A stretch of DNA of 64,000 nt from the NCBI GenBank assembly GCA_023250675.1, contig JAHFAE010000003.1, positions 4,311 to 68,310 of the forward strand. Reading direction: 5' to 3'. Source of the DNA: Oligoflexia bacterium (GTDB lineage Bacteria > Bdellovibrionota > Bdellovibrionia > JABDDW01). Under the pieces are notes generated by a model. The model worked only from the letters and a program-made list of their open reading frames with translations. It had not been told where the DNA came from and did not search any database. Numbering within the stretch: position 1 is the stretch's first letter; every line of letters begins with the position of its first letter. A program made the translations under genes and the position numbers. This document shows, piece by piece, positions 1-11,229 of the stretch.

Positions 1-53
1 CCTACCTTGGGCATTCTGGATTAGATAAAAATCTAGATCTTGTACGGCTCGCC

Positions 54-1024: not shown

Positions 1025-2347
1025 ATGAAGTCTCACGTTTTAGTGCTGATCGGAATCGCTTTTGTTTTAGCTGGATGCGGCCAAGCCCCTTTAAAAGAAT
1101 ATCCAGAGACAACTACTGCCGATGCAAGAAGGCTCACTTCAGAAATCGCAACTGGAGCTGCCCAACATTTAGATGTTCTAGCCCCTGAAGAGTTTGTTCA
1201 AGCAAAGAAATTATCTGAAAAAGTAGATGCCGCCATTATAGATGGCGATGACGAAAATGAGATCTTAAGTATTATCGCTCAAAGTCGTGCGGTTTTGAAG
1301 AGTGCTTATACAATCGGCAAATCCAGACGTCCCGCCGTTGACGGCATTATTAGAATTCGACAAATGGCCATGGAGGCTGGAGTAAGAAACTATCCCAAAT
1401 TTGGTTCAGATTTAAATCATGTTGACGACGATCTTCGTGATCAAGTTCATCATCTTGACGATTTGTCGCTAAAGGATTTTTCAAAAATCCAAGGTAAGTA
1501 TATGGATTTAGAATTGGCAACTTTAAAGGCGAACAACTTAGATCATATCATTAAGGCCATAGAAACCGCAAAAGACGAACACAAAGCAAAAAAAGTAGCA
1601 CCCAAATCTCTGAAGACTGCGGAGTTTGATCTTCAAAATGCTGAAAATATGATCGCCGCAAGCCGAGGTAGGCCTGAAACCTACAGGGCTTCAGTTGAAA
1701 AAGCTCGTTATAGTTCTCAGCTTCTAACTGATGTTATCATGGTGGCTACAAAAGGTGAAAATCGGTTAGACGAAGATACGGCACTAAATATTGTATATCA
1801 AAACCGAAGGATTTCGTCACTTCAGACAAACCTAACTGCAGCTAATACCAAAAATAAAACTTTAGATCAAAAAATGACAGTGGCTAACGCAACCTACAAA
1901 CTTCAAAAATCTATCGAAGCGGCCCGACACAGTTTCACTAAGCAAGAAGCCGAAGTTTACCAACAAGGTGATCGGGTACTTATTCGATTGAAGGCAATGA
2001 ATTTTTCAAGTGGTCATGCTGAGCTGCCAGCCTCTTCTTTTACTTTATTGAATAGAGTCAAAAAAGTGGCTATAGATCTGGGATTTCAACACATGATCAT
2101 CGAAGGTCATACCGATTCCGCTGGAAAGTCTGAATCCAATGACCAGCTTTCTCAGTCTCGCGCCGAAGCAGTGGCCCATTATTTTGAGTCAAACGGAGTT
2201 GATGGAGACAAGATTCAGGCTGTGGGATTTGGATTTAAAAAACCAATCGCAAGCAACAAGACGTCTATTGGTAGGTCTCAAAATAGAAGAGTCGATATTA
2301 TTATCACGCCCAATGGCGCTCAAAGAGAAACCGCATCAGAAAAATAA
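1025..2347 (+). CDS. OmpA-family lipoprotein
   Basis: GGAGGG sits 5 nt before the ATG. The N-terminus has a lipobox (LAGC). The C-terminus is an OmpA-like domain (...EGHTDSAGKSESNDQLSQSRAEAV...NRRVDIII). Confidence 0.7.
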   Translation: MKSHVLVLIGIAFVLAGCGQAPLKEYPETTTADARRLTSEIATGAAQHLDVLAPEEFVQAKKLSEKVDAAIIDGDDENEILSIIAQSRAVLKSAYTIGKSRRPAVDGIIRIRQMAMEAGVRNYPKFGSDLNHVDDDLRDQVHHLDDLSLKDFSKIQGKYMDLELATLKANNLDHIIKAIETAKDEHKAKKVAPKSLKTAEFDLQNAENMIAASRGRPETYRASVEKARYSSQLLTDVIMVATKGENRLDEDTALNIVYQNRRISSLQTNLTAANTKNKTLDQKMTVANATYKLQKSIEAARHSFTKQEAEVYQQGDRVLIRLKAMNFSSGHAELPASSFTLLNRVKKVAIDLGFQHMIIEGHTDSAGKSESNDQLSQSRAEAVAHYFESNGVDGDKIQAVGFGFKKPIASNKTSIGRSQNRRVDIIITPNGAQRETASEK

Positions 2348-2640
2348 TTTATTTCTTGCAAGAAATTTAACTATTGATTTTTTGATGGAAGAACCGTGGT
2401 GCCCAAGAGCAACAAGTAGACGAACTGAATTCTGGCGTCAACTGCGATTTAAGAACCTCTGGGAGTTTTGTCATTCTGGTCTTCGAGCTCGAAGCCTATC
2501 CTGAGCCAAAGAACCTCACTGCAAGTCAATTAAGAGGGCTCATAAAGAAATTTGGAAGTAGTACAAAGGCCGCCGTTGCCATTGGAGCTTGCGAGGCCTT
2601 TGTGCGCCAAAAAGCCAAACCTAAGTAATTTTCAATTAAT

Positions 2641-3102
2641 CTAGCAGGACTCCAAAACCTCTTGGAGAAACTCATTCACATGGGGCCACTTGTCATCGTC
2701 AATTCTCTCAATGGTTTCTCTATCTCCATCATAGACATGCTTGTGATGAAACTTATGGTGATCGGGTAAGTTGGACTTTACGTCCCCATGGGGACTGCAA
2801 TATCGAAATAACTTTGAGCCTCCAGGGATAGAGGCGCTGTAGGTATAATCATATGTGCGTGCTCTAGGCCGCTTTTTATTTGACGGATCTATTTCTACAT
2901 TTTTCCTAATATCAACTCTGATTGAATTTCCTTTTGTCGTTCGGATTACAATATTTTCTGCTCTTAAAATTAAAAAGAAGGGCGTGAGTTTCCTATGAAT
3001 ATAAGTCTTAACCGTAACCATATGTTTTGAGTATTGGCGCAGCACACGATCATGCACAGAGAGATAATTCTCCAGGGTATTCCAATCATGTTTGAGTTTC
3101 AT
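2641..3102 (-). CDS. hypothetical protein; downstream gene of an overlapping two-gene cassette
   Basis: 153-aa ORF. Its ATG overlaps the stop of the upstream 89-aa gene (ATGA), which implies translational coupling. It has a His-rich segment (DHHKFHHKH) and an R-x4-H near the N-terminus. No confident family assignment. Confidence 0.5.
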   Translation of the reverse strand: MKLKHDWNTLENYLSVHDRVLRQYSKHMVTVKTYIHRKLTPFFLILRAENIVIRTTKGNSIRVDIRKNVEIDPSNKKRPRARTYDYTYSASIPGGSKLFRYCSPHGDVKSNLPDHHKFHHKHVYDGDRETIERIDDDKWPHVNEFLQEVLESC

Positions 3103-3368
3103 TTTTTTAGAAATGCGACTTGTCTGGCTAGCATGAGGGCATCAAGGTGATCTTCGTTGAAATTTTTTGAGGTCTCTGCCTTTTCTAAAAGGGCTTCTAC
3201 AGAAAGATCATTTTTTGAAGCTAGAATTTCGAGTTCCATAGTTAGAGCCTTGAGGGCTTCTTCCTTGGAAGAATAAAGAGGTACACTCTTCATTACTTCG
3301 TCGAAAAGCTGATTATCTTTTGCAGAATCATCCTTTGTTTTACGTTTTGTTTTCTCAAGGTCTGCCAT
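3099..3368 (-). CDS. hypothetical small acidic helical protein; upstream gene of the cassette
   Basis: 89 aa. GGAGG sits 5 nt upstream of the ATG. The protein is K/E-rich and predicted helical, and its gene overlaps the downstream gene by 4 nt. Confidence 0.5.
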   Translation of the reverse strand: MADLEKTKRKTKDDSAKDNQLFDEVMKSVPLYSSKEEALKALTMELEILASKNDLSVEALLEKAETSKNFNEDHLDALMLARQVAFLKK

Positions 3369-3701
3369 AAGGCCTCCAGTAGAGATATAATAACATAGGT
3401 TTGCGCCAAATCGTTAGTCGAAAATAGCTTTGTTTACGTATAGTTACAACTTTATCCAAACGGTTTTCTTTACTGCCATTTATCCAATTTTTGTTTTTCG
3501 TGACCGTCAAAGGCTGCGGTCAATTCTGATTCCGCACTCCTGCAAACCTGTCTGTGCCAGAAACTACCCTGTCACAGGGTTTGCCTTACGGGTCGTGCGG
3601 GAATTGCCCTTCGCTTTGACTCTCCCATCCATCTCGCCGCTTGTCTTTTGTGAAAGCGGGCTCGATAGAGGGAGTCCCGAAAAACAAAAGGAGGATTTGA
3701 A

Positions 3702-3908
3702 ATGGGAATTGATAAAATAATTGAAATTGCAGTTGGGTTGACACTCATTGCGGCCGCCACGGGGCAATTGCCCAAAGTGGTGAGGCAAGTTCAAATGGCT
3801 CAACTCCGCCTACTTCAAGATTCTAAGACGTCGACATGGGGTCATCTTATGATTATTGATTCCAAGCAAAATTCTCGAAAGGTTTACATTGTTGATCCCC
3901 AAGAGTAG
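3702..3908 (+). CDS. small single-TM membrane protein (68 aa)
   Basis: A perfect AAGGAGG lies 7 nt upstream of the ATG. The protein has a hydrophobic segment IIEIAVGLTLIAAATG. The gene sits in an otherwise 618-bp intergenic gap. Confidence 0.4.
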   Translation: MGIDKIIEIAVGLTLIAAATGQLPKVVRQVQMAQLRLLQDSKTSTWGHLMIIDSKQNSRKVYIVDPQE

Positions 3909-3956
3909 ACGGGGATCACATCTTCCCAACTCATTAGCCCAAAATTAAATCATCAG

Positions 3957-3976
3957 GGTAGTGTCAGATGATCAGC
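3957..3976. terminator. palindrome tgtcag-N8-ctgaca between convergent genes
   Basis: 6-bp stem between the 3' ends of the 68-aa ORF and the HExxH gene. No clear U-tract. Confidence 0.25.
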
Positions 3977-3986
3977 TGACATAACA

Positions 3987-5081
3987 TTAGATGCCCTCAG
4001 GAATCGTCTGAATCAGACTATCTATATTATATTGCCAATCTTCTGATTGAAACAATTTTTCAAGAGCCTGCTGGAATGATGAACCTAATGAAATCTGGGT
4101 TATGAGTAATTTCAATGCTCCAGTCTTATAGTATGCGTCATCATAATTATTTGGCCCCAAACCTACCGCGCAATATTTTAAAATATCTGAGCTGCTCATA
4201 ACACCCAAAAGATTTAGAGTGCTAAGCGCCATATATTCGGCAAAACCTTCAACCATTTCTCCAATAGCCTCCTCTTTAACACACTCTTTACTTTCCGGCG
4301 TTCCATTATAGGCGTTAACCATCTGATACCGCTTGTTCCGCGTTTTAAAGTAATCTTTGATAAGCTGAGTATTATTGTTGGCGGTAAAGGGATTCGATAA
4401 ATTTTTAAATATTTTAAGCAGTATGAGAGATTCTTCATCAAATAAATTTGAAACTTCTTTAGTGACGGAATAGCATTTATTAATTTTCATGGGCTTATGC
4501 CCATATGCCCAGAGCGGCCAAATTTTTCTTTCGCCGAGGTCTGGTCCGCTTTGACCAAATTGATGAAAACCCTCATGAATTAGCATAAAAATAAGAAGCA
4601 TATTTGATTTGATAAATTGTTTAAAAAACGAATCTTTCGTTTTTTCAGCCAGGCCTTTAAAAAATTCAGGCTGAATATTAAAAAGCATGATTTGAGGTTC
4701 ATTCTGTCCCACTTCTTTGGTGAGGTTTTGAGAAAGAAAATTTGAGAAAGTTTCTATGTTGCCTCGCGCTACGCTCATAAAATCATACAAACCATTTTCG
4801 GGAGGAAGTACTGATTTTAAGTAAGAGGGGCCATAAGATCTGCCGCTTTTTAGCATCAATATACACTGGGGATTCACAATCGGGTCAATTAGTGCAATTG
4901 GGAAGGCCGATAAATGGTATCCGTTTATGATTGGAGCAGTTTTAGCTTCTTTGTCTAAAAATTCTTGAATTTGGATCTTCACTGAATGGTCACGAAGAAA
5001 AGAACAATCATCGTCTATCAAGGCCTGACCACTTGCACCTGTCGAAATTATTAACAATATGAAAATAAATACAATCTTCAT
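3987..5081 (-). CDS. secreted HExxH-motif protein (putative zinc metallopeptidase-like)
   Basis: The start was moved to MKIVFIFILLIISTGASGQA, a signal peptide with AGGGAG upstream. The motif LIHEGFHQFGQ has a Glu about 11 residues after the second His. Confidence 0.5.
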   Translation of the reverse strand: MKIVFIFILLIISTGASGQALIDDDCSFLRDHSVKIQIQEFLDKEAKTAPIINGYHLSAFPIALIDPIVNPQCILMLKSGRSYGPSYLKSVLPPENGLYDFMSVARGNIETFSNFLSQNLTKEVGQNEPQIMLFNIQPEFFKGLAEKTKDSFFKQFIKSNMLLIFMLIHEGFHQFGQSGPDLGERKIWPLWAYGHKPMKINKCYSVTKEVSNLFDEESLILLKIFKNLSNPFTANNNTQLIKDYFKTRNKRYQMVNAYNGTPESKECVKEEAIGEMVEGFAEYMALSTLNLLGVMSSSDILKYCAVGLGPNNYDDAYYKTGALKLLITQISLGSSFQQALEKLFQSEDWQYNIDSLIQTIPEGI

Positions 5082-5299
5082 AAACTCCCTTTGGTCAGAG
5101 AAACAATTATCTTGGCAATGCACCGTCAGTTGCGACATATGTGCCAAAAAGAAATCAAATTAAACGACCCAGTGACCTACTAAGCTAGGAAGACCTGGAA
5201 ATGGTTCCTGGGTCGCGGCCGGGTGAGCGCCCTTTCTTGATAATGTGACCCTTGAATGAGGTTAGCTTAGCTTTCTACGGTGTTTCGGGATCGTCAAAA

Positions 5300-5410
5300 A
5301 GAATTCCGAATCACCGTATTCGGTTTTCCGGAATGGCACGGGAACCCGTAAAACATTAAGTCGTCGAATCTGCGTCTGTTTTTAGAAATCATTACGGTAT
5401 TCCGTAAAAT
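5300..5410. repeat. cluster of short palindromes and repeated ATTCCG/CGGAAT and CCGTAAAA motifs
   Basis: Elements seen: ccgaat-N6-attcgg, ttccggaa, acggg-aa-cccgt, and ttacgg-tatt-ccgtaa. GTATTC and CCGTAAAA each occur twice, about 80 and 56 bp apart respectively. The cluster sits in the 560-bp divergent region upstream of the wHTH gene. Confidence 0.5.
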
Positions 5411-5551
5411 ATTGCATTCTCTTAACTTTGATTTTGCAGGTCTTTTCTCATTTTTCTCTATTAATCACATGCATTTAAATCTATTGGCATGATCTTCAAA
5501 AATTCTTGCAATTTAAAAAGGTGAGGAGGAGAGGTGTTTTTTAGATCAATG

Positions 5552-5588
5552 AATCCTCTCCCAGGATTACCGACGCATTTACGTCGGT
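5552..5588 (+). promoter_or_regulatory. two adjacent hairpins (aatcct-ctccc-aggatt; accgacg-cattta-cgtcggt) just upstream of the wHTH gene
   Basis: Perfect 6- and 7-bp inverted repeats lie 55-90 nt before the GTG start at 5643. Confidence 0.35.
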
Positions 5589-5642
5589 TTATTTGAAAAG
5601 TGAAACTTCGATGGACCATTTTTCGAGCCCCCAGAAAGCGAG

Positions 5643-6437
5643 GTGCTTATATTAAGATTTTCTGTTCGTGAAAAACATATTCTAAATTCATTAAATAAAT
5701 ATTCGATTCTTTCAAGTCACGAGCTTTACCAACGTTGCTTTAATGGAGTGTCCCACACCTTCATGATGAAGACTTTGAGGGACCTCATTACGAAAGGGAT
5801 GATCTATCGTGTAAAGGGCCGCTACAACGAGGCTCATTCGTTTGCGCTCACCTGCCGTGGTGCCAAAGGCTTAGGGTTTAACCTTCCACTCTCAAGAGTC
5901 TATTGGCAGACCAGGTACCATGACTTGGCAGTTAATAGAGTGCGCTTTATTTTTGAGGATCTTGGCCTTGGGGAAAAGTTTATTTCAATGAGGGATCTAA
6001 GACTTAAAAAAAATGATTCGATTTTAGAAGCCTTAGGGAATGTAAGAGGGAGTGATGGGGTATTTTTCATTCCATCAGAAGGCGGTAATGAAGTTGTTGT
6101 CATGGAAGTGGAAGTTGCTCAAAAAAAACCATTTGAACACAGACGAATTCTTTCAAAATTCAAAGACAATTCCCAAGTTGGTATCGTTCTCTGCTTTTTA
6201 GCAAGCCCTGCCGAGTATCTAACAGCGTTAACCGAATGGCGAAATTTTGAAAAGAGTAGGTCAACAAAACTTTATGTCGTGCACTTAGGAGAGTTCTTAA
6301 AATTCTCCGGCGATGCGAGGGTAAGAACTCTAAGGGGCATCTTACCTTTCCATAAGGCATTCAATTTAAGAAATTGGGTATCAAAGGTAAAGGAAAATGA
6401 AATTGACCAGAAACTCCTTTGGTCACCGTCATTTTGA
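5643..6437 (+). CDS. hypothetical protein with an N-terminal winged-helix-like region
   Basis: 264-aa ORF with a GTG start; the true start is uncertain and could be the internal ATG at 5763. The N-terminus looks wHTH-like (LRDLITKGMIYRVKGRY). The C-terminal domain is unknown and could be replication-relaxation-like or nuclease-like. Confidence 0.45.
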   Translation: MLILRFSVREKHILNSLNKYSILSSHELYQRCFNGVSHTFMMKTLRDLITKGMIYRVKGRYNEAHSFALTCRGAKGLGFNLPLSRVYWQTRYHDLAVNRVRFIFEDLGLGEKFISMRDLRLKKNDSILEALGNVRGSDGVFFIPSEGGNEVVVMEVEVAQKKPFEHRRILSKFKDNSQVGIVLCFLASPAEYLTALTEWRNFEKSRSTKLYVVHLGEFLKFSGDARVRTLRGILPFHKAFNLRNWVSKVKENEIDQKLLWSPSF

Positions 6438-6518
6438 CCGTCCTGGCGACGGTCATGGGTGAACCGTGAAAAATGTGTTCTTACAGAAGTTAAGCCAGTC
6501 GGAACACGAAGGAATATT

Positions 6519-6625
6519 GATCCCGCAATTTATAAAAGAGTCGCCCTTGACGCCCGTGACCACTCCCCCCCAACCATAGGTGGGAAGTAGTCACGGCCTG
6601 GGCTCAAAAGTTAGATTGCGGGATC
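6519..6625. repeat. nested imperfect inverted repeat (gatcccgcaat...attgcgggatc around cgtgaccact-C7-...-agtagtcacg)
   Basis: The outer arms are 11 bp and perfect. The inner arms match 9 of 10 bp. The centre is C-rich. It lies about 230 bp upstream of the recombinase operon. Confidence 0.5.
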
Positions 6626-6681
6626 AGAGAAATGAAAAATCATGGATGAATTTATAAGTTGTTTTATTTTTAGAGGTGTTG

Positions 6682-6855
6682 ATGAAGTTAGATGAAATGA
6701 CGATTGAAACAGTTCAAGTTAAGATCTTAAATGATGACTACGAAAAGAAATTGACAAATTTAGTAAAAATACTTTTGGAAATTGGAGAGACAACCAATTC
6801 AAGACAGGCTAATAAGGATGAGTCAAAACCGTCTGAAAATTTGGAGGCCGCATGA
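6682..6855 (+). CDS. 57-aa small protein translationally coupled to the serine recombinase (candidate directionality factor or regulator)
   Basis: ATG preceded by AGAGGTG. The stop TGA overlaps the recombinase ATG (ATGA). This ORF is not in the supplied track, presumably because it is under 60 aa. Confidence 0.4.
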   Translation: MKLDEMTIETVQVKILNDDYEKKLTNLVKILLEIGETTNSRQANKDESKPSENLEAA

Positions 6856-8585
6856 AACGAATTGGGCTCTATTTAAGAGTATCCACTGAAGAGCAGGCAA
6901 GAATTACTGACGGGAGTCTCGTCAGTCAGAAAGCCAGGCTTGAAGAATATGTGGCAGGCCTTAACAGGCGAGATAGCGGTTGGGGTCAGATAGTTGACGT
7001 TTACCAAGATACCCTTTCGGCTAAAGACATGAACCGCCCGGAGTTTAAAAGACTCATTGCCGATGTTCGCTCGGGCCGCATCAACCTGATCTTGGCAACA
7101 GAGCTTTCCAGATTGTCGAGGTCCACTAGGGATTTTTGCGAGCTGTGGGATATCTTTAAACAATATAAGACCCGCTTCATAACCCTGCGGGAGCAGTTTG
7201 ATACAACCACGGCCGCAGGTGAGATGATGGTTTTTAACCTCATTAATTTTGCTCAATTTGAAAGAAAACAAACGGCTGAAAGAATATCCGCAAACCAGCT
7301 ATCCCGTGCCAAACGCGGGCTTTGGAACGGTGGCACGATTCCATTGGGTTATACCCGTAACCCCAAAAACCCGGGGCAGCTCATTCCAAATCAGGATGAA
7401 GCCAAAGACGTTGAGACGATTTTTAAGACGTTTCTTGAAACTGGAGCTGTTAGAAAAGCCTGTCAGGCCGTTACAAAGAAGGGGATCTTCTCAAAGTCAT
7501 ATGTGAATAAGCACGGTATTGCAAAGGGTGGTGGCGCTTTCACGGTCCCAAGCCTCTATCAAATCCTCACCAATAAGGCCTATCTTGGAATTAGAGAGAT
7601 CAATAAGAAGAAGTCGACCAGTAAATTGGAGGAAGTGAAAGCGGCGTGGGAGCCGATTGTAAATCGGGAATTATTTGACCTGGTTCAAGAAAGACTTGGA
7701 GCAAATAAGAATAAGTATAAACCTGCCGAGTGGAAAAAATATGCTTATCCGCTCACTGAAAAAATTATCTGTGGTGAATGCGGCAAGAATCTCGGGGGCA
7801 AATCTGCTAACGGCCAGGGCGGGACCTATAATTACTATGCTCATGCAAGGCAGCTTCATAGTGACGGCAAATCGCACTTGAAGCGATGTCAAATGGAGAA
7901 GGTGAGGGCTCAAAGGACCGAAGAGATGGTGATTCGCTCCCTTAGAGACGTTCTCTCAAGGCCGGAAAAGATTGACGAGATGATCCAAGCCTACGCGAAA
8001 CAAAGCCAAGAGGTGATACCTGGGCTAGAGGGAAAGCTTAAGCAAGTCGACATTGAAATTAGGACCCATGGGAAACGGCGCGAGAATTTAATGGAACGTA
8101 TTGCAGATTTGCCGCCAGAAATTAATGCTGATTTATTCTTTGAGAAGATTAAGGCTGTGACTAAAAAACTTGAATCGGCAGACGTCATAAAAGCTGATCT
8201 CATGGCACAGAAAAACAAAGCGACGGGCCAGGTTATTGATAGAGAAGGGTTAAGGCGAAGGCTGCACAATTCCTTGGCGCTCCTAGAATCAAGTCCCAAG
8301 GAGAAACAACGCGAGATCTTTAATAACGTCATCCAGTTTGCAGAAGTTTATCCGATGAAAATGCGGTTGGGACTCTACGCCCCGACCGTTTCCTCAACGC
8401 TGACCGATCAAAAGCTTACTGGTACTGATTCTTATTTAAGAAGGTGTGCCAGTTCGACCAGCGTTAGGAGTGGTGCCTCCGAGGAGAATCGAACTCCTAC
8501 ACCCGTGAAGGTACTGGATTTTGAGTCCAGCGCGTCTACCAGTTCCGCCACAGAGGCAATCAAAAAAAACCTAGTGAGTTCATGA
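6852..8585 (+). CDS. large serine recombinase (integrase/resolvase-type N-terminal domain)
   Basis: The N-terminus MKRIGLYLRVSTEEQ carries the catalytic Ser and a resolvase-like domain (~140 aa), followed by a long recombinase/zinc-ribbon/coiled-coil region (CGECG...). GGAGG precedes the start. The last ~38 codons are read antisense through the tRNA-Leu. Confidence 0.8.
   Translation: MKRIGLYLRVSTEEQARITDGSLVSQKARLEEYVAGLNRRDSGWGQIVDVYQDTLSAKDMNRPEFKRLIADVRSGRINLILATELSRLSRSTRDFCELWDIFKQYKTRFITLREQFDTTTAAGEMMVFNLINFAQFERKQTAERISANQLSRAKRGLWNGGTIPLGYTRNPKNPGQLIPNQDEAKDVETIFKTFLETGAVRKACQAVTKKGIFSKSYVNKHGIAKGGGAFTVPSLYQILTNKAYLGIREINKKKSTSKLEEVKAAWEPIVNRELFDLVQERLGANKNKYKPAEWKKYAYPLTEKIICGECGKNLGGKSANGQGGTYNYYAHARQLHSDGKSHLKRCQMEKVRAQRTEEMVIRSLRDVLSRPEKIDEMIQAYAKQSQEVIPGLEGKLKQVDIEIRTHGKRRENLMERIADLPPEINADLFFEKIKAVTKKLESADVIKADLMAQKNKATGQVIDREGLRRRLHNSLALLESSPKEKQREIFNNVIQFAEVYPMKMRLGLYAPTVSSTLTDQKLTGTDSYLRRCASSTSVRSGASEENRTPTPVKVLDFESSASTSSATEAIKKNLVSS
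8471..8557 (-). tRNA. tRNA-Leu (anticodon CAA)
   Basis: The reverse complement folds as a class II tRNA. The acceptor stem is GCCTCTG/CGGAGGC. The D-arm contains GG. The anticodon stem-loop is CTGGA-CTCAAAA-TCCAG, with U33, anticodon CAA and A37. There is a long variable arm, a T-arm AGGAG-TTCGATT-CTCCT, a discriminator A and an encoded CCA. Confidence 0.85.
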
Positions 8586-8843
8586 TTTAACCCCAGAAAA
8601 ATACAAAAGCAAAACAAACTCCAATAAAAAACCGGGCTAAGAGGTTACTAGAAGTGGCACGACCACGAAAATTCTGCATAGTAACTGTCAAATTGCTCGC
8701 AGAATGGGAGTGTCACTATCGCAACATAATTAAGTAATATCAGTATATTACAATATTACATAAATTAGACTAGGTGGGGGCATGAACATTGCTCACCATT
8801 CTCTCCATAGAAGCTTAGTTTTTAGGCGTAAGGAGAAGATCAG

Positions 8844-10049
8844 ATGGAAAAATTTTTACAAATCGCTGTGGTCGTCGGAACATTGGGAATCTCAGGCTTT
8901 TCCCTAGGAGCTGAAGACTACAATCAAGGATTAAAAAAAGAACTTAGCGAAGTTAAGAAAATTCAGGTTGAAAAAGTAGCTCCAGCTATAAGTTCTGCTG
9001 AATCAATCAACACCGTAACACAAGTTCAGACACAAACCCCTCCGTCTACAAACACGAACCTGCAACCCATCTACATACTGCAACAACCGGCAGCTTCGCC
9101 CCAGGCGCAAGTTCAGCCCGCAACCACCATTGAAGCTGCGCCGGTAAAAGAGTCTCGTGCAGATCAGTTGAGAAAACAAAGAGAAGAAGTTGAACATCAA
9201 ACGGAAAATAAGCTTGTTGAACGACTTGAAGATGATCGCCTCTTATCTGAAAAAGACCGAGCAGACCGACTCTTGGCACCGTTGAATCCACCAACGCCCG
9301 CGGTTTCACCTTCTCCTCTTACTGTCAATCCCCCCATCACGACTGTACCAACTAATGCAACAGTTACTCCGGCGACAGTTGTTCCTCCACCCGTAGTAGC
9401 TCCGGTAATTGTAACAAGAGAAGAAGTACCTACTGTCACAGCTACCCATGATGACCTCATGCGAAACAATGAATCTGAAGAACCTGCTAAGTTCAGCATT
9501 GGTGCCTTGGCCGGTCTTGGTTCTTATCCTTCAGTCGGCAACGTCAACGGCGCCTATGCTGCCGGTGTCCTCATGGATATGCAGTTTGCCGAGCGTTTAG
9601 GACTTGAAACTGCATTTCTTTATTCAAGCTATGACATAAAGAACAACTACAATAATTTTTACTGCCCAGGCTGCGGCGGCAGTCTTGTCACAACTCTCAA
9701 TCAATATAATTTTGATGTTGGTTTGACTTATCATATTTTAGGCGGCCGAGTTTCGCCGGTGGTCGGAGTAATAGCCGACTACACCCGGCGAAGTTATTCA
9801 GATCGAATTCGTTATGGTTCAAATACCGGTTCGACTCGGGGTTCTAATTCCTTTGACGGGGGATTTCTGGTCGGAGTAGACGTTTCGGCAACCAAAAAAC
9901 TAACGGTGGGTATGGATATTCGATATCTCATGAATTTCAGTTACCGCACCGACGACGCACTAGCTTATAACGTAGGTTATCAGCAAGGCGATCCCATTGA
10001 ATCTCTCAATTACTACTTTGCCACATTAAGTTTGAAATTGTCCTTATAA
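8844..10049 (+). CDS. outer-membrane beta-barrel protein with a Pro/Thr/Val-rich linker
   Basis: AAGGAG precedes the start. The protein has a signal peptide, a long low-complexity PT-rich region and a C-terminal segment of alternating hydrophobic residues. Confidence 0.5.
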   Translation: MEKFLQIAVVVGTLGISGFSLGAEDYNQGLKKELSEVKKIQVEKVAPAISSAESINTVTQVQTQTPPSTNTNLQPIYILQQPAASPQAQVQPATTIEAAPVKESRADQLRKQREEVEHQTENKLVERLEDDRLLSEKDRADRLLAPLNPPTPAVSPSPLTVNPPITTVPTNATVTPATVVPPPVVAPVIVTREEVPTVTATHDDLMRNNESEEPAKFSIGALAGLGSYPSVGNVNGAYAAGVLMDMQFAERLGLETAFLYSSYDIKNNYNNFYCPGCGGSLVTTLNQYNFDVGLTYHILGGRVSPVVGVIADYTRRSYSDRIRYGSNTGSTRGSNSFDGGFLVGVDVSATKKLTVGMDIRYLMNFSYRTDDALAYNVGYQQGDPIESLNYYFATLSLKLSL

Positions 10050-10054
10050 TCAAA

Positions 10055-10088
10055 AGCGCTTCAGGATGAGGCGCTTTTTTTTGTTCAA
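10055..10088 (+). terminator. rho-independent terminator
   Basis: agcgcttc-aggat-gaggcgct, followed by T8. Confidence 0.55.
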
Positions 10089-10124
10089 AATGACAAAACT
10101 TCAAAACTCTGGCATCCTGTTGTT

Positions 10125-10817
10125 ATGCACATGACTTCTAAAAGTTTACTCTTATTTCTAGTCCTTTCAGTTTTCGGAACACCCGATGCTTTTGCAACAA
10201 AACAAATGGTTCTTAAATCAGTGGGTGCCGTAGGTGGCAAGGTCATTACAAACCGCGATGTTGAAGCAAATTACATCGTAGATAGGGTGCTGTATAATAA
10301 TGGTTCCTATACTCCTATTAGTCTTGGCACCGAAGAATTTAACTCGGCTCTAGATCGGCTGCTAGTCGAATATATGGTTTTTGAAGAAGCAACGGAGTTT
10401 GGTGTGGCAAAGGTAGCCGATTCTGAAGTTGACCAATCTTTTGGCTCCGTAAAAACTAAATTAAATAACACGGGCCCCATTCATTCAAATTGGTCTTTGT
10501 TAGGATACTCAGAGCCGCAGCTCAAAGAAATGGTGGGAAGAAAACTTCGCTCCAATCGATTCATTAAATATAAGTCTAACTCCAGTTACGTTCAGGTCAG
10601 CGACGAAGAGGCTCGGGATTATTTTAATAAAAACCAATTAAAATTTGGAACGGCTGAATTTGAAGGATTTAAGGTCAATATCAAGAAATTTCTTGGTAAG
10701 AAAAATGCCGACGATCGGCTCCGAGAATGGTTTGAAATTCTTCGAAAAAAGCATAAAGTAAAAAATCTTCAAATTGCCAATGAAGGGCACAGTGTTAAAG
10801 CACCGGCCGATCAATAG
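10125..10817 (+). CDS. secreted protein resembling a SurA N-terminal chaperone domain
   Basis: Signal peptide, then a segment (VITNRDVEANYIVDRVL...LDRLLVEYMVFEEA) resembling SurA/PpiD N-domains. Confidence 0.4.
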   Translation: MHMTSKSLLLFLVLSVFGTPDAFATKQMVLKSVGAVGGKVITNRDVEANYIVDRVLYNNGSYTPISLGTEEFNSALDRLLVEYMVFEEATEFGVAKVADSEVDQSFGSVKTKLNNTGPIHSNWSLLGYSEPQLKEMVGRKLRSNRFIKYKSNSSYVQVSDEEARDYFNKNQLKFGTAEFEGFKVNIKKFLGKKNADDRLREWFEILRKKHKVKNLQIANEGHSVKAPADQ

Positions 10818-11229
10818 TTCCGATCTACCTGATATTCTAAAGATCAATAATCAAGTTCAACTCAATCCGTGGACTCAAGCCGATATTGAAGTCGAAATAT
10901 CAAAACAATGTAATTTTTCTAAAGCAGCACTCAAAGAAGATAAACTCGTTGGCTATTTGCTGGTTCGAGAGTGTGGCAAAGATTTAGAGATTATGTCCAT
11001 AGGAGTTGACCAAAAGCATCAACGCTCCGGTATAGGAAGCGCGTTATTAAAAGAGTTAATCCAATCTAAACCGCCATCCACAGAGCTTTTTTTAGAAGTA
11101 AGTCATGAAAATCAACCGGCACAGGCGATCTATTTAAGGATGGGGTTTGAAACCTACTTGGTTAGAAAATCCTATTACGGAGATGGCAGCAACGCCCTCT
11201 GCATGAAACTTCGCCTTGCAAATCCCTAA
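10780..11229 (+). CDS. rimI: GNAT N-acetyltransferase, RimI-like
   Basis: Contains the GNAT acetyl-CoA motif QRSGIGSALL. Size and position upstream of rimP-nusA fit RimI. Confidence 0.55.
   Translation: MKGTVLKHRPINSSDLPDILKINNQVQLNPWTQADIEVEISKQCNFSKAALKEDKLVGYLLVRECGKDLEIMSIGVDQKHQRSGIGSALLKELIQSKPPSTELFLEVSHENQPAQAIYLRMGFETYLVRKSYYGDGSNALCMKLRLANP

Follow-up and report, generated by a model that had tools for sequence, protein, structure and literature searches.

Examination of a 64,000-nucleotide stretch of DNA from an Oligoflexia bacterium (contig JAHFAE010000003.1; the whole stretch is called the window below, and positions are counted from its first letter) revealed what is very probably a 6,074-bp integrative element, placed at the extreme 3' end of a tRNA-Leu(CAA) gene by its own large serine integrase, with the attachment site of the element (attP) lying within the open reading frame (ORF) of that integrase. 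Comparison of the two ends indicates that the island is real and that its limits can be set to the base, from a TGGTGCC core at 2397-2403 to a TGGTGCC core at 8471-8477 (span 2397/2402 to 8471/8476). An earlier note on this DNA had placed an integrative island between the tRNA and a motif at 2397, with a large serine recombinase as its integrase, and both proposals are upheld here.

The integrase gene, in its integrated-state form, occupies 6852-8585 on the plus strand and encodes 577 amino acids, residues 1-542 being derived from the element and residues 543-577 from the antisense strand of the tRNA and the host flank; from residue 540 on, the reading frame is the antisense strand of the whole tRNA gene. 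By domain content the protein is a bona fide large serine integrase, with Resolvase (PF00239, E 1.2e-30), Recombinase (PF07508, E 1.8e-16) and Zn_ribbon_recom (PF13408, E 7e-7, above the cut-off) domains. It matches the phrog_95 integrase over residues 1-508 (E 1.7e-96), and R9-V10-S11-T12 of the RVSTEEQ nucleophile motif are invariant in an alignment of 20 sequences. The closest solved structures are those of the TP901-1 and SPbeta integrases, sequence similarity being low and confined to the catalytic domain (best E 7.5e-15). More than 1000 homologs were found, mostly in metagenome-assembled genomes (MAGs) of Bdellovibrionales, and relatives with 35-40% identity occur in marine and freshwater metagenomes.

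The tRNA-Leu(CAA) gene (8471-8557, minus strand) is intact and, as had been noticed before, is the sole tRNA in the 64-kb window, ARAGORN finding this one and Rfam agreeing at 57.8 bits; the Rfam scan of 2000-9000 returned nothing besides it. An exact block, GTGGTGCC, is repeated at the two ends of the island on the plus strand. The right copy (8470-8477) is the functional CCA end of the tRNA and forms the junction P-O-B', and the left copy (2396-2403), at the junction B-O-P', holds the displaced CCA, discriminator and first acceptor bases. The exact direct repeat for which the earlier note had advised a search thus exists, limited to 8 nt. Because the exchanged bases (CCA, discriminator and 1-2 acceptor bases) are identical in both partners, the tRNA stays intact. 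Six core matches lie upstream of the integrase; the one at 2397 alone is followed by CGAAC at exactly +25..29 and by a tail-homologous frame of 77 codons in the phase of the integrase, and by our estimate a frame of this kind would stay open by chance, at 42% GC, with a probability of about 0.01. In two loci from one sample, L094 and L095, the 1815 nt that end at the core are 90.8% identical, and past it the loci are unrelated; since their identity stops at the core, the exchange point is placed within it. Another direct repeat (2447-2467 and 8434-8454, 76% identity) was rejected as a chance match, being out of register with the cores.

When position 8477 is joined to 2404, the integrase frame remains open for 74 further codons, up to a TAA at 2625-2627, and the product grows to 616 amino acids. 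The segment at 2398-2627 (plus strand) is read accordingly as the orphaned 3' end of the integrase gene; it consists of the GA core codons and a 74-codon tail, with a three-helix helix-turn-helix (HTH) domain at approximately 2521-2616. No ATG, GTG or TTG occurs in this frame before codon 72, eight codons short of the stop, and on this codon content it cannot be translated alone. Rejoining the ends shows attP inside the integrase ORF, with the P half-site GTTCG and the core both coding (…SSTSVRSGA), and it shows that the P' half-site and the HTH tail, which keep the phase of the integrase and lack a start codon, now stand at the opposite border of the island, 6 kb distant. That the serine recombinase gene overlaps the tRNA was correctly seen in the earlier note, the 577-residue ORF running antisense through the entire gene; the overlap is not incidental, attP lying inside the ORF and integration detaching a 74-codon HTH tail (2404-2624).

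With a 75-residue query, HMMER run against all of 1.84 billion representatives yielded 99 relatives of the tail at E<1e-3. Their N-termini are mutually unrelated and are followed, in nearly all of them, by GA-x4-V(D/E)E(P/L) and then by AYPEPK…IGASEAFVRQN. In two proteins, P0332 and P0286, the tail segment is fused to the C-terminus of the integrase (…SSSLTVGAQAAQVDEP…). A hidden Markov model (HMM) of the tail detects the domain in the window and in loci L005, L007, L015 and L016, each time ahead of the integrase gene and on its strand, and a second type of tail (…YPIQW…LAELAKLRW…) is present in L018/L019 (tRNA-Arg), L020 (Leu-CAG) and L026 (Leu-GAG). For two tail pairs the proportion of synonymous differences (pS) is 0.65-0.83, that is saturated, and that of nonsynonymous differences (pN) 0.20-0.27, also beyond the att arm (pN/pS about 0.3); this low pN in spite of saturated synonymous change indicates that the tail frame has been translated. 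The AlphaFold model of the tail, built on a 48-sequence alignment, is a three-helix bundle with a predicted local distance difference test score (pLDDT) above 90 for the helices. Its top structural matches are the HTH domains of Cro, Aca1, Fis and LysR, with the weak E-values that are expected for 30 residues, and P22_Cro and HTH_50 are weak matches in Pfam.

Reconstruction from the integrated form, by joining the ends, gives a 52-bp attP, CAGTTCG-N38-CGAACTG, in which a perfect 7-bp inverted repeat is centred on the core and which has the size and shape of a serine-integrase attP. The P arm (8450-8470, plus strand), within the integrase ORF, starts with CAGTTCG (8450-8456), has its GTTCG 14 nt before the tRNA end and encodes the conserved peptide SSTSV; the P' arm (2404-2427, plus strand) ends with the inverted partner CGAACTG (2421-2427). 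Two peptides conserved in the family, GST(S/T)V and V(D/E)EP, are simply what the two half-sites encode. The dyad falls on the G|C of TGGTGC. The motif stands at 20-24 bp from it in P and in P', and the T-loop of the tRNA (CGAAC at 8490-8494 of the plus strand), which belongs to the B' arm of the host attachment site (attB), at 15-19 bp. In the LI/A118 system the zinc-ribbon motif of attB is displaced inward by 5 bp with respect to that of attP (Rutherford et al. 2013, PMC3783163), and the tRNA-side (B') half agrees with this offset. The B arm (2370-2396, plus strand) is host sequence located just 3' of the original tRNA end. It holds TGGAAGAACCG (2386-2396), the very sequence that forms the P' half-site motif in L007 (10833-10843) and in L094, here at the wrong position for this element; it may be the relic of an earlier insertion.

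Loci fetched for comparison were scored with an HMM of the integrase family and considered related when their integrase exceeded 300 bits. In all 26 independent loci above this threshold in which a tRNA or transfer-messenger RNA (tmRNA) gene is present, that gene is antisense and its 3' end is overlapped by the integrase ORF, by 9-231 nt. At least 12 different genes serve as targets: Leu (5 anticodons), Phe, Val, Arg (3 anticodons), Met, Pro, His, Asp and two tmRNA genes. GTTCG stands exactly at -19..-15, 14 nt before the CCA end, in 19 of the 26 right junctions, the background being 6e-4 per position, and the spacing is kept even with integrases that are 35-40% identical and sit on other tRNAs. 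Among the 120 best homologs of the integrase, 97 end in GAxxxxRT… or in GAxxxT followed by a stop, which is the translated antisense acceptor stem and T-arm (CGA-ACx is read as R-T, and a TTCAA T-loop gives an in-frame TGA). Left ends were sought as the first 6-8 nt of the antisense tRNA, N18, NGAAC and an open frame in the integrase phase. All eight left junctions (the window, L005, L007, L015, L016, L018, L020 and L026) show the core, N18, [CA]GAAC (at +25..29 from the core) and the in-frame tail, and the islands delimited in this way measure 3.3-11 kb. A metagenome scan with generic peptide patterns added at least three close relatives among the matches listed; it was the more distant relatives that proved informative.

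These features can be assembled into a model. The excised circle would encode a 616-residue integrase-HTH fusion, with the predicted circle junction …CAGTTCGACCAGCGTTAGGAGTGGTGCCCAAGAGCAACAAGTAGACGAACTG…, and the integrated copy would encode the 577-residue protein, in which antisense tRNA and flank supply the terminal 35 residues; the empty site is predicted to read …TTTTTTGATGGAAGAACCGTGGTGCCTCCGAGGAGAATCGAACTCC…. Exchange would be confined to the shared core of 6-8 bp, leaving the tRNA unchanged, and the zinc-ribbon domain would read GTTCG both in the two attP arms (at 20-24 bp) and in the host T-loop (at 15-19 bp). By analogy with IntP/IntX of Mx8, the swap of tails would make the protein differ between the free and the integrated states. 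It may bias integration against excision or alter regulation, perhaps together with a 59-residue ORF (6676-6855) acting as directionality factor, and the Replic_Relax-like protein encoded upstream suggests maintenance or mobilisation of the circular form. In the integrated state, transcription of the integrase must also run antisense across the whole tRNA-Leu gene and 28 nt further (8471-8585). Such convergence with a highly expressed tRNA gene could damp integrase expression.

Several observations weigh against an element that moves in this way. The earlier note had suggested looking for an empty site in related genomes, and none was found: neither an empty attB nor a circular junction came to light for the element or for any relative. 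A scan of genome contigs with the OmpA-like protein encoded at the left flank returned one unrelated locus, and exact look-ups of the integrase and of the outer membrane protein (OMP) of the right flank returned no record. Among contigs with an identical OmpA, L010 carries the island, L011 ends too early and L012 diverges at 2369; at 54% OmpA identity (L013) synteny is lost. The composition of the island is that of the host, and the deviation that the earlier note had proposed to look for is absent (GC 0.418 for the island and 0.420 for the window, tetranucleotide distance within 1 SD). The B arm has no recognisable half-site, and the B arms (tRNA trailers) of the eight left junctions share no motif, several of them being terminator-like hairpins. 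A dyad on G|C would give a palindromic crossover dinucleotide, which would be unusual for a serine integrase, and the crossover is placed no more closely than within TGGTGC. TGGTGCC itself occurs 11 times in the window (5.1 expected), so that the 7-mer alone is not significant, whereas its combination with CGAAC and the open frame at 2397 exceeds chance. Finally, P0014 (631 aa) and P0035 were first candidates for unsplit integrases in the attP form and were rejected, as the left end of L007 has a canonical orphan tail and L094/L095 have P'-type arms without a tRNA; the long integrases of L007 (P0014), L094 (P0035) and L095 are probably tandem P|P' junctions and not free attP. Such tandem junctions in themselves testify that insertion at these sites has occurred more than once.

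Two side observations belong here. L012 is a 1.6-kb contig from another sample (1384-1613 against 2348-2576 of the window), and past 2369 it continues into AT-rich sequence from the interior of an ORF that resembles a DNA methylase (…GYIFISIDDNE…); either a strain variant whose content at the hotspot differs or an assembly chimera could explain it. L007 (1-14697) is a tandem array in which an element of the family of about 10.7 kb has its left core at 103 and its integrase (P0014) at 9135-11030. The cargo of this element comprises DarT/Macro (DarTG), an Mrr-like nuclease, an AEP-TOTE/SNF2 helicase and an insertion sequence (IS) transposase, and the integrase ORF continues without a break into the P' arm of a second element and its tail, which is of type 2; this second element opens with a HigBA-like pair.

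The alternative that best survives these points, although we regard it as improbable, is a fixed and immobile locus, inherited vertically and either domesticated or decaying, whose att-like features are fossils. Besides the missing empty site and the host-like composition, it is favoured by L004, which has the same tRNA, the same right flank (OMP, SurA-like, RimI, RimP, NusA) and an integrase of 70% identity, and which is compatible with independent insertion as well as with long (old vertical) residence. Yet the integrase of L004 is better conserved than most of the flanking proteins (39-59%), and in the window the integrase ORF, the stop-free tail ORF and the perfect 7-bp inverted repeat are all intact. 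No homologs of the cargo proteins could be detected beyond this strain, and the family occupies its at least 12 different t(m)RNA genes in varied contexts, some of them tandem arrays, which is hard to reconcile with a fixed locus. We infer mobility of the element from its architecture and from the comparison between loci.

A classical tRNA island, in which the motif at 2397 would be the decayed copy of a longer tRNA 3' fragment and both the overlap and the open frame would be incidental, appears slightly less probable still. In its favour, the 3' ends of tRNA genes are the classic target of islands (PMC4383910), the match from which the earlier note had started, tggtgcccaagag (2397-2409) against tggtgcctccgag (8471-8483), with cgaact at 2421-2426, is indeed no better than 10 of 13, and TGGTGCC by itself is common in the window. 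As a boundary the 2397 motif stands. What it does not turn out to be is a degenerate, displaced tRNA 3' end with a relic of the T-loop: it is the crossover core of 6-8 bp followed by the P' half-site of the element, in the layout found at all eight related left ends. A displaced fragment of tens of nucleotides is not found as a direct repeat in the window or at any of these eight ends, 8 identical nt being all that is shared. The core, N18, [CA]GAAC and conserved in-frame tail recur there on a variety of tRNAs, even where identity of the integrases falls to 36%, the tail has no start codon and shows purifying selection, identity between sister elements ends at the core and not deeper in the tRNA, and the only recombinase of the island is the serine integrase, with no tyrosine integrase beside it.

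A little more remote is the possibility that the tail is an independent small gene for a Cro/Xis-like regulator which abuts attP and was never fused to the integrase. Nearly all relatives of the tail (about 95 of 99) are annotated as free-standing small ORFs of 50-130 amino acids, and the fold is Cro-like. Against this, none of the five type-1 tails (window, L005, L007, L015, L016) has a Met codon, and GTG or TTG occur only inside the domain, none before it. Gene calling has probably produced these small ORFs as an artefact, since their starts lie in host flank that is not conserved, ahead of the invariant GA codons. The phase of the tail is that of the integrase in 8 of 8 cases, where chance would give one third each, and in P0332 and P0286 the two are physically fused. 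The defence or satellite island proposed in the earlier note, a phage satellite or defence locus beside an integrase, is the least probable of all: small size, proximity to an integrase, orphan cargo, a convergent two-gene cassette and the DarT/Macro, Mrr-like nuclease and helicase genes of the relative L007 speak for it, but PADLOC gave 0 hits among the seven island proteins, the integrase was the only PHROG match (with no structural, packaging or primase match), scans of IMG/VR with the P-arm pattern and with the integrase returned no relatives, and plasmids gave no matches.

A broader proposal is offered tentatively and with slightly less than even confidence. A large and widespread clade of serine integrases may use the universally conserved T-loop of tRNA and tmRNA, which stands at a fixed distance from the CCA end, as one attB half-site, and a change of a few core bases may suffice to retarget it to essentially any t(m)RNA gene. 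The clade would also have placed attP within its own gene, and the HTH domain, attached only in the excised state, may sense the state of integration and serve directionality or expression. Three distant serine integrases with lower HMM scores (169-202) have an antisense tRNA gene at their 3' end or shortly beyond it, Gln 72 nt away in L055, Ser 124 nt away in L057 and Trp overlapped by 221 nt in L058, and targeting of tRNA ends may extend beyond the clade studied here. Other att-like sites were seen in two related loci. L026 has a second core and CGAAC site 4.3 kb to the left of its real left end (positions 210 and 4475), and L018 has a fragment resembling a tRNA 3' end at 4280 and a P-type GTTCG-N14 on the expected host arm (5016-5034); these remnants hint at serial insertion and decay at such sites.

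Six ORFs lie between the OmpA-family gene and the integrase, and they can be divided into a backbone and a cargo. The backbone is made up of the genes for a Replic_Relax-like protein and the integrase together with a small ORF coupled to the latter, and what remains is orphan cargo. The first of these genes, upstream of the integrase operon (5643-6437, plus strand), encodes 264 amino acids (224 in the source record; the start, in 5643-5762, is probably over-extended). The protein has no direct match in Pfam and its homolog search returned itself alone; it matches the product of L014:1121-1918 (BLASTP E 7e-17), and this one and that of L021:961-1818 match PF13814 at 33.4 and 29.9 bits (cut-off 25.3). 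Through the intermediate homolog in L014 it is best classified as a divergent Replic_Relax member, and it belongs to the backbone, not to the cargo among which the earlier note had listed it as a winged helix-turn-helix protein. Neither relaxase activity, nor an oriT, nor a coupling protein was identified in the element. The 59-residue ORF (6676-6855, plus strand), whose stop overlaps the integrase start (ATGA), has counterparts of 44-65 amino acids at the same place in every locus examined, with weak similarity in L002, L003 and L015; it may act as a directionality factor or as a regulator, and it belongs to the backbone. Gene order is the same at the P0006 locus. A small membrane protein of 68 amino acids (3702-3908, plus strand) recurs beside the integrase in related elements; by tblastn, identity is 66% in the two loci with the closest integrases, L003 and L002, and 43% in L029. 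Listed as cargo in the earlier note, it is probably backbone.

That the cargo cannot be annotated holds true: ORFs in 2641-6855 are without significant match in Pfam, NCBIfam, PHROGs or PADLOC, and nothing usable came from Pfam even when E was allowed to reach 5, from PDB sequences or from tblastn against plasmids. Two coupled genes converge on the tail, an upstream ORF of 89 amino acids (3099-3368, minus strand) and, overlapping it by 4 nt, a downstream orphan ORF of 153 (2641-3102, minus strand), a singleton cluster whose single-sequence AlphaFold model is unusable (pLDDT 34). The single match of the 89-residue product is to Antitox_RHH, below threshold (E 0.15), and an antitoxin-like partner would be a weak guess; the HigBA-like pair of L007 occupies the analogous position, as a convergent two-gene cassette after the tail. 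An orphan ORF of 386 codons (3987-5147, minus strand) carries HEGFH and a downstream EGFAEY motif. Its likely start is the ATG at 5078 (24th codon; MKIVFIF…), the listed ORF being over-extended (5079-5147), and its N-terminus is signal-like. From these motifs it may be a secreted metallopeptidase-like protein; no match was found in Pfam, NCBIfam, PADLOC, PDB or plasmids. This HEGFH protein and the pair at 2641-3368 are singletons with no relatives in any library searched.

The intergenic regions, described earlier as repeat-rich, contain just short and weak repeats. Two copies of ACGGnnnnCCGTAAAAnATT (5338-5357 and 5394-5413) lie 56 nt apart in the 5147-5643 region, and an inverted repeat of 15 nt (6518-6532 and 6612-6626, 93% complementary) precedes the operon of the 59-residue ORF and the integrase; they are possibly operators, for the tail HTH or the winged-helix protein. 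On the host side, the OmpA-family gene, with 475 homologs in Bdellovibrionales-type MAGs, has its stop at 2347, and a perfect 16-nt palindrome, ATTTCTTGCAAGAAAT (2351-2366), stands between this stop and the island. The terminator scan passed over it because its stem is AT-rich; it may be a shared terminator or the native trailer of the tRNA.

A whole clade (more than 1000 proteins, mostly from Bdellovibrionota MAGs) appears to target tRNA genes, under a concrete and testable rule, a GTTCG-N14-CCA end on the element and a T-loop on the host, which bears on the old question of why integrases favour tRNA genes. Should the proposal for the clade hold, serine integrases would have their own route to tRNA genes and a natural directionality switch made of a fused domain. 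An integrase that rewrites its own C-terminus has been seen previously only among tyrosine enzymes (Mx8, SSV), and in a serine enzyme it would be a convergent, state-dependent switch; the split gene would be the natural counterpart of engineered fusions of an integrase with a recombination directionality factor. Since the sites recognised exist in every genome, such enzymes are candidates for integration without a landing pad. For annotation pipelines, antisense-tRNA extensions and orphan tails are not to be called as genuine separate gene ends.

Targeting of t(m)RNA 3' ends and a gene that spans attP appear to be essentially undescribed for serine integrases. The authors of Islander stated that serine integrases were not known to target tRNA genes (PMC4383910), and the catalogue of large serine recombinases does not mention tRNA (PMC10083194). 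In the TIGER survey, 14 of 297 serine-integrase islands were at t(m)RNA genes, a use that was 'not reported previously' and for which 'experimental proof will be required' (Mageeney et al. 2020, PMC7192596); no clade, att anatomy or gene splitting is given there for these cases. In the literature searched, the coverage of which is incomplete, no example of a gene-spanning attP was found for a serine integrase.

The enzyme nevertheless shares much with characterised large serine integrases (phiC31, Bxb1, A118/LI, TP901-1, SprA of SPbeta): the Resolvase, Recombinase and zinc-ribbon domains, the RVSTEEQ motif, an attP of about 50 bp with inverted half-sites, a 5-bp inward shift in the tRNA-side half of the host site, a short core and the lack of long direct repeats. 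It differs in its targets, which are protein-coding or intergenic in the characterised cases and t(m)RNA 3' ends here, and in having attP inside rather than outside the int ORF; moreover, one attB half-site is the T-loop while the other arm is not conserved, and the presence of a C-terminal HTH depends on the recombination state.

A close parallel in design is the myxophage Mx8, whose attP also lies within the int coding sequence (IntP/IntX) and whose attB is also at a tRNA 3' end. Its chemistry is that of a tyrosine recombinase, its att sites are large and of the arm type and the phage measures 50 kb, so that the likeness is one of design and not of homology. Integration of Mx8 does not inactivate the gene but recombines it, so that it acquires another 3' end and its properties change (PMC6070905; PMC4383910). 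The 'suicidal' integrases of SSV-type archaeal elements also have the site inside the ORF and are split on integration into a tRNA gene (PMC7253208; PMC4383910). They are archaeal tyrosine recombinases that lose catalytic parts, whereas here the catalytic and DNA-binding domains stay together and the extra HTH alone is detached. In its overall build, the element is like the integrative mobilizable elements with Replic_Relax (PF13814), being small and having a winged-helix protein of that family immediately upstream of the integrase.

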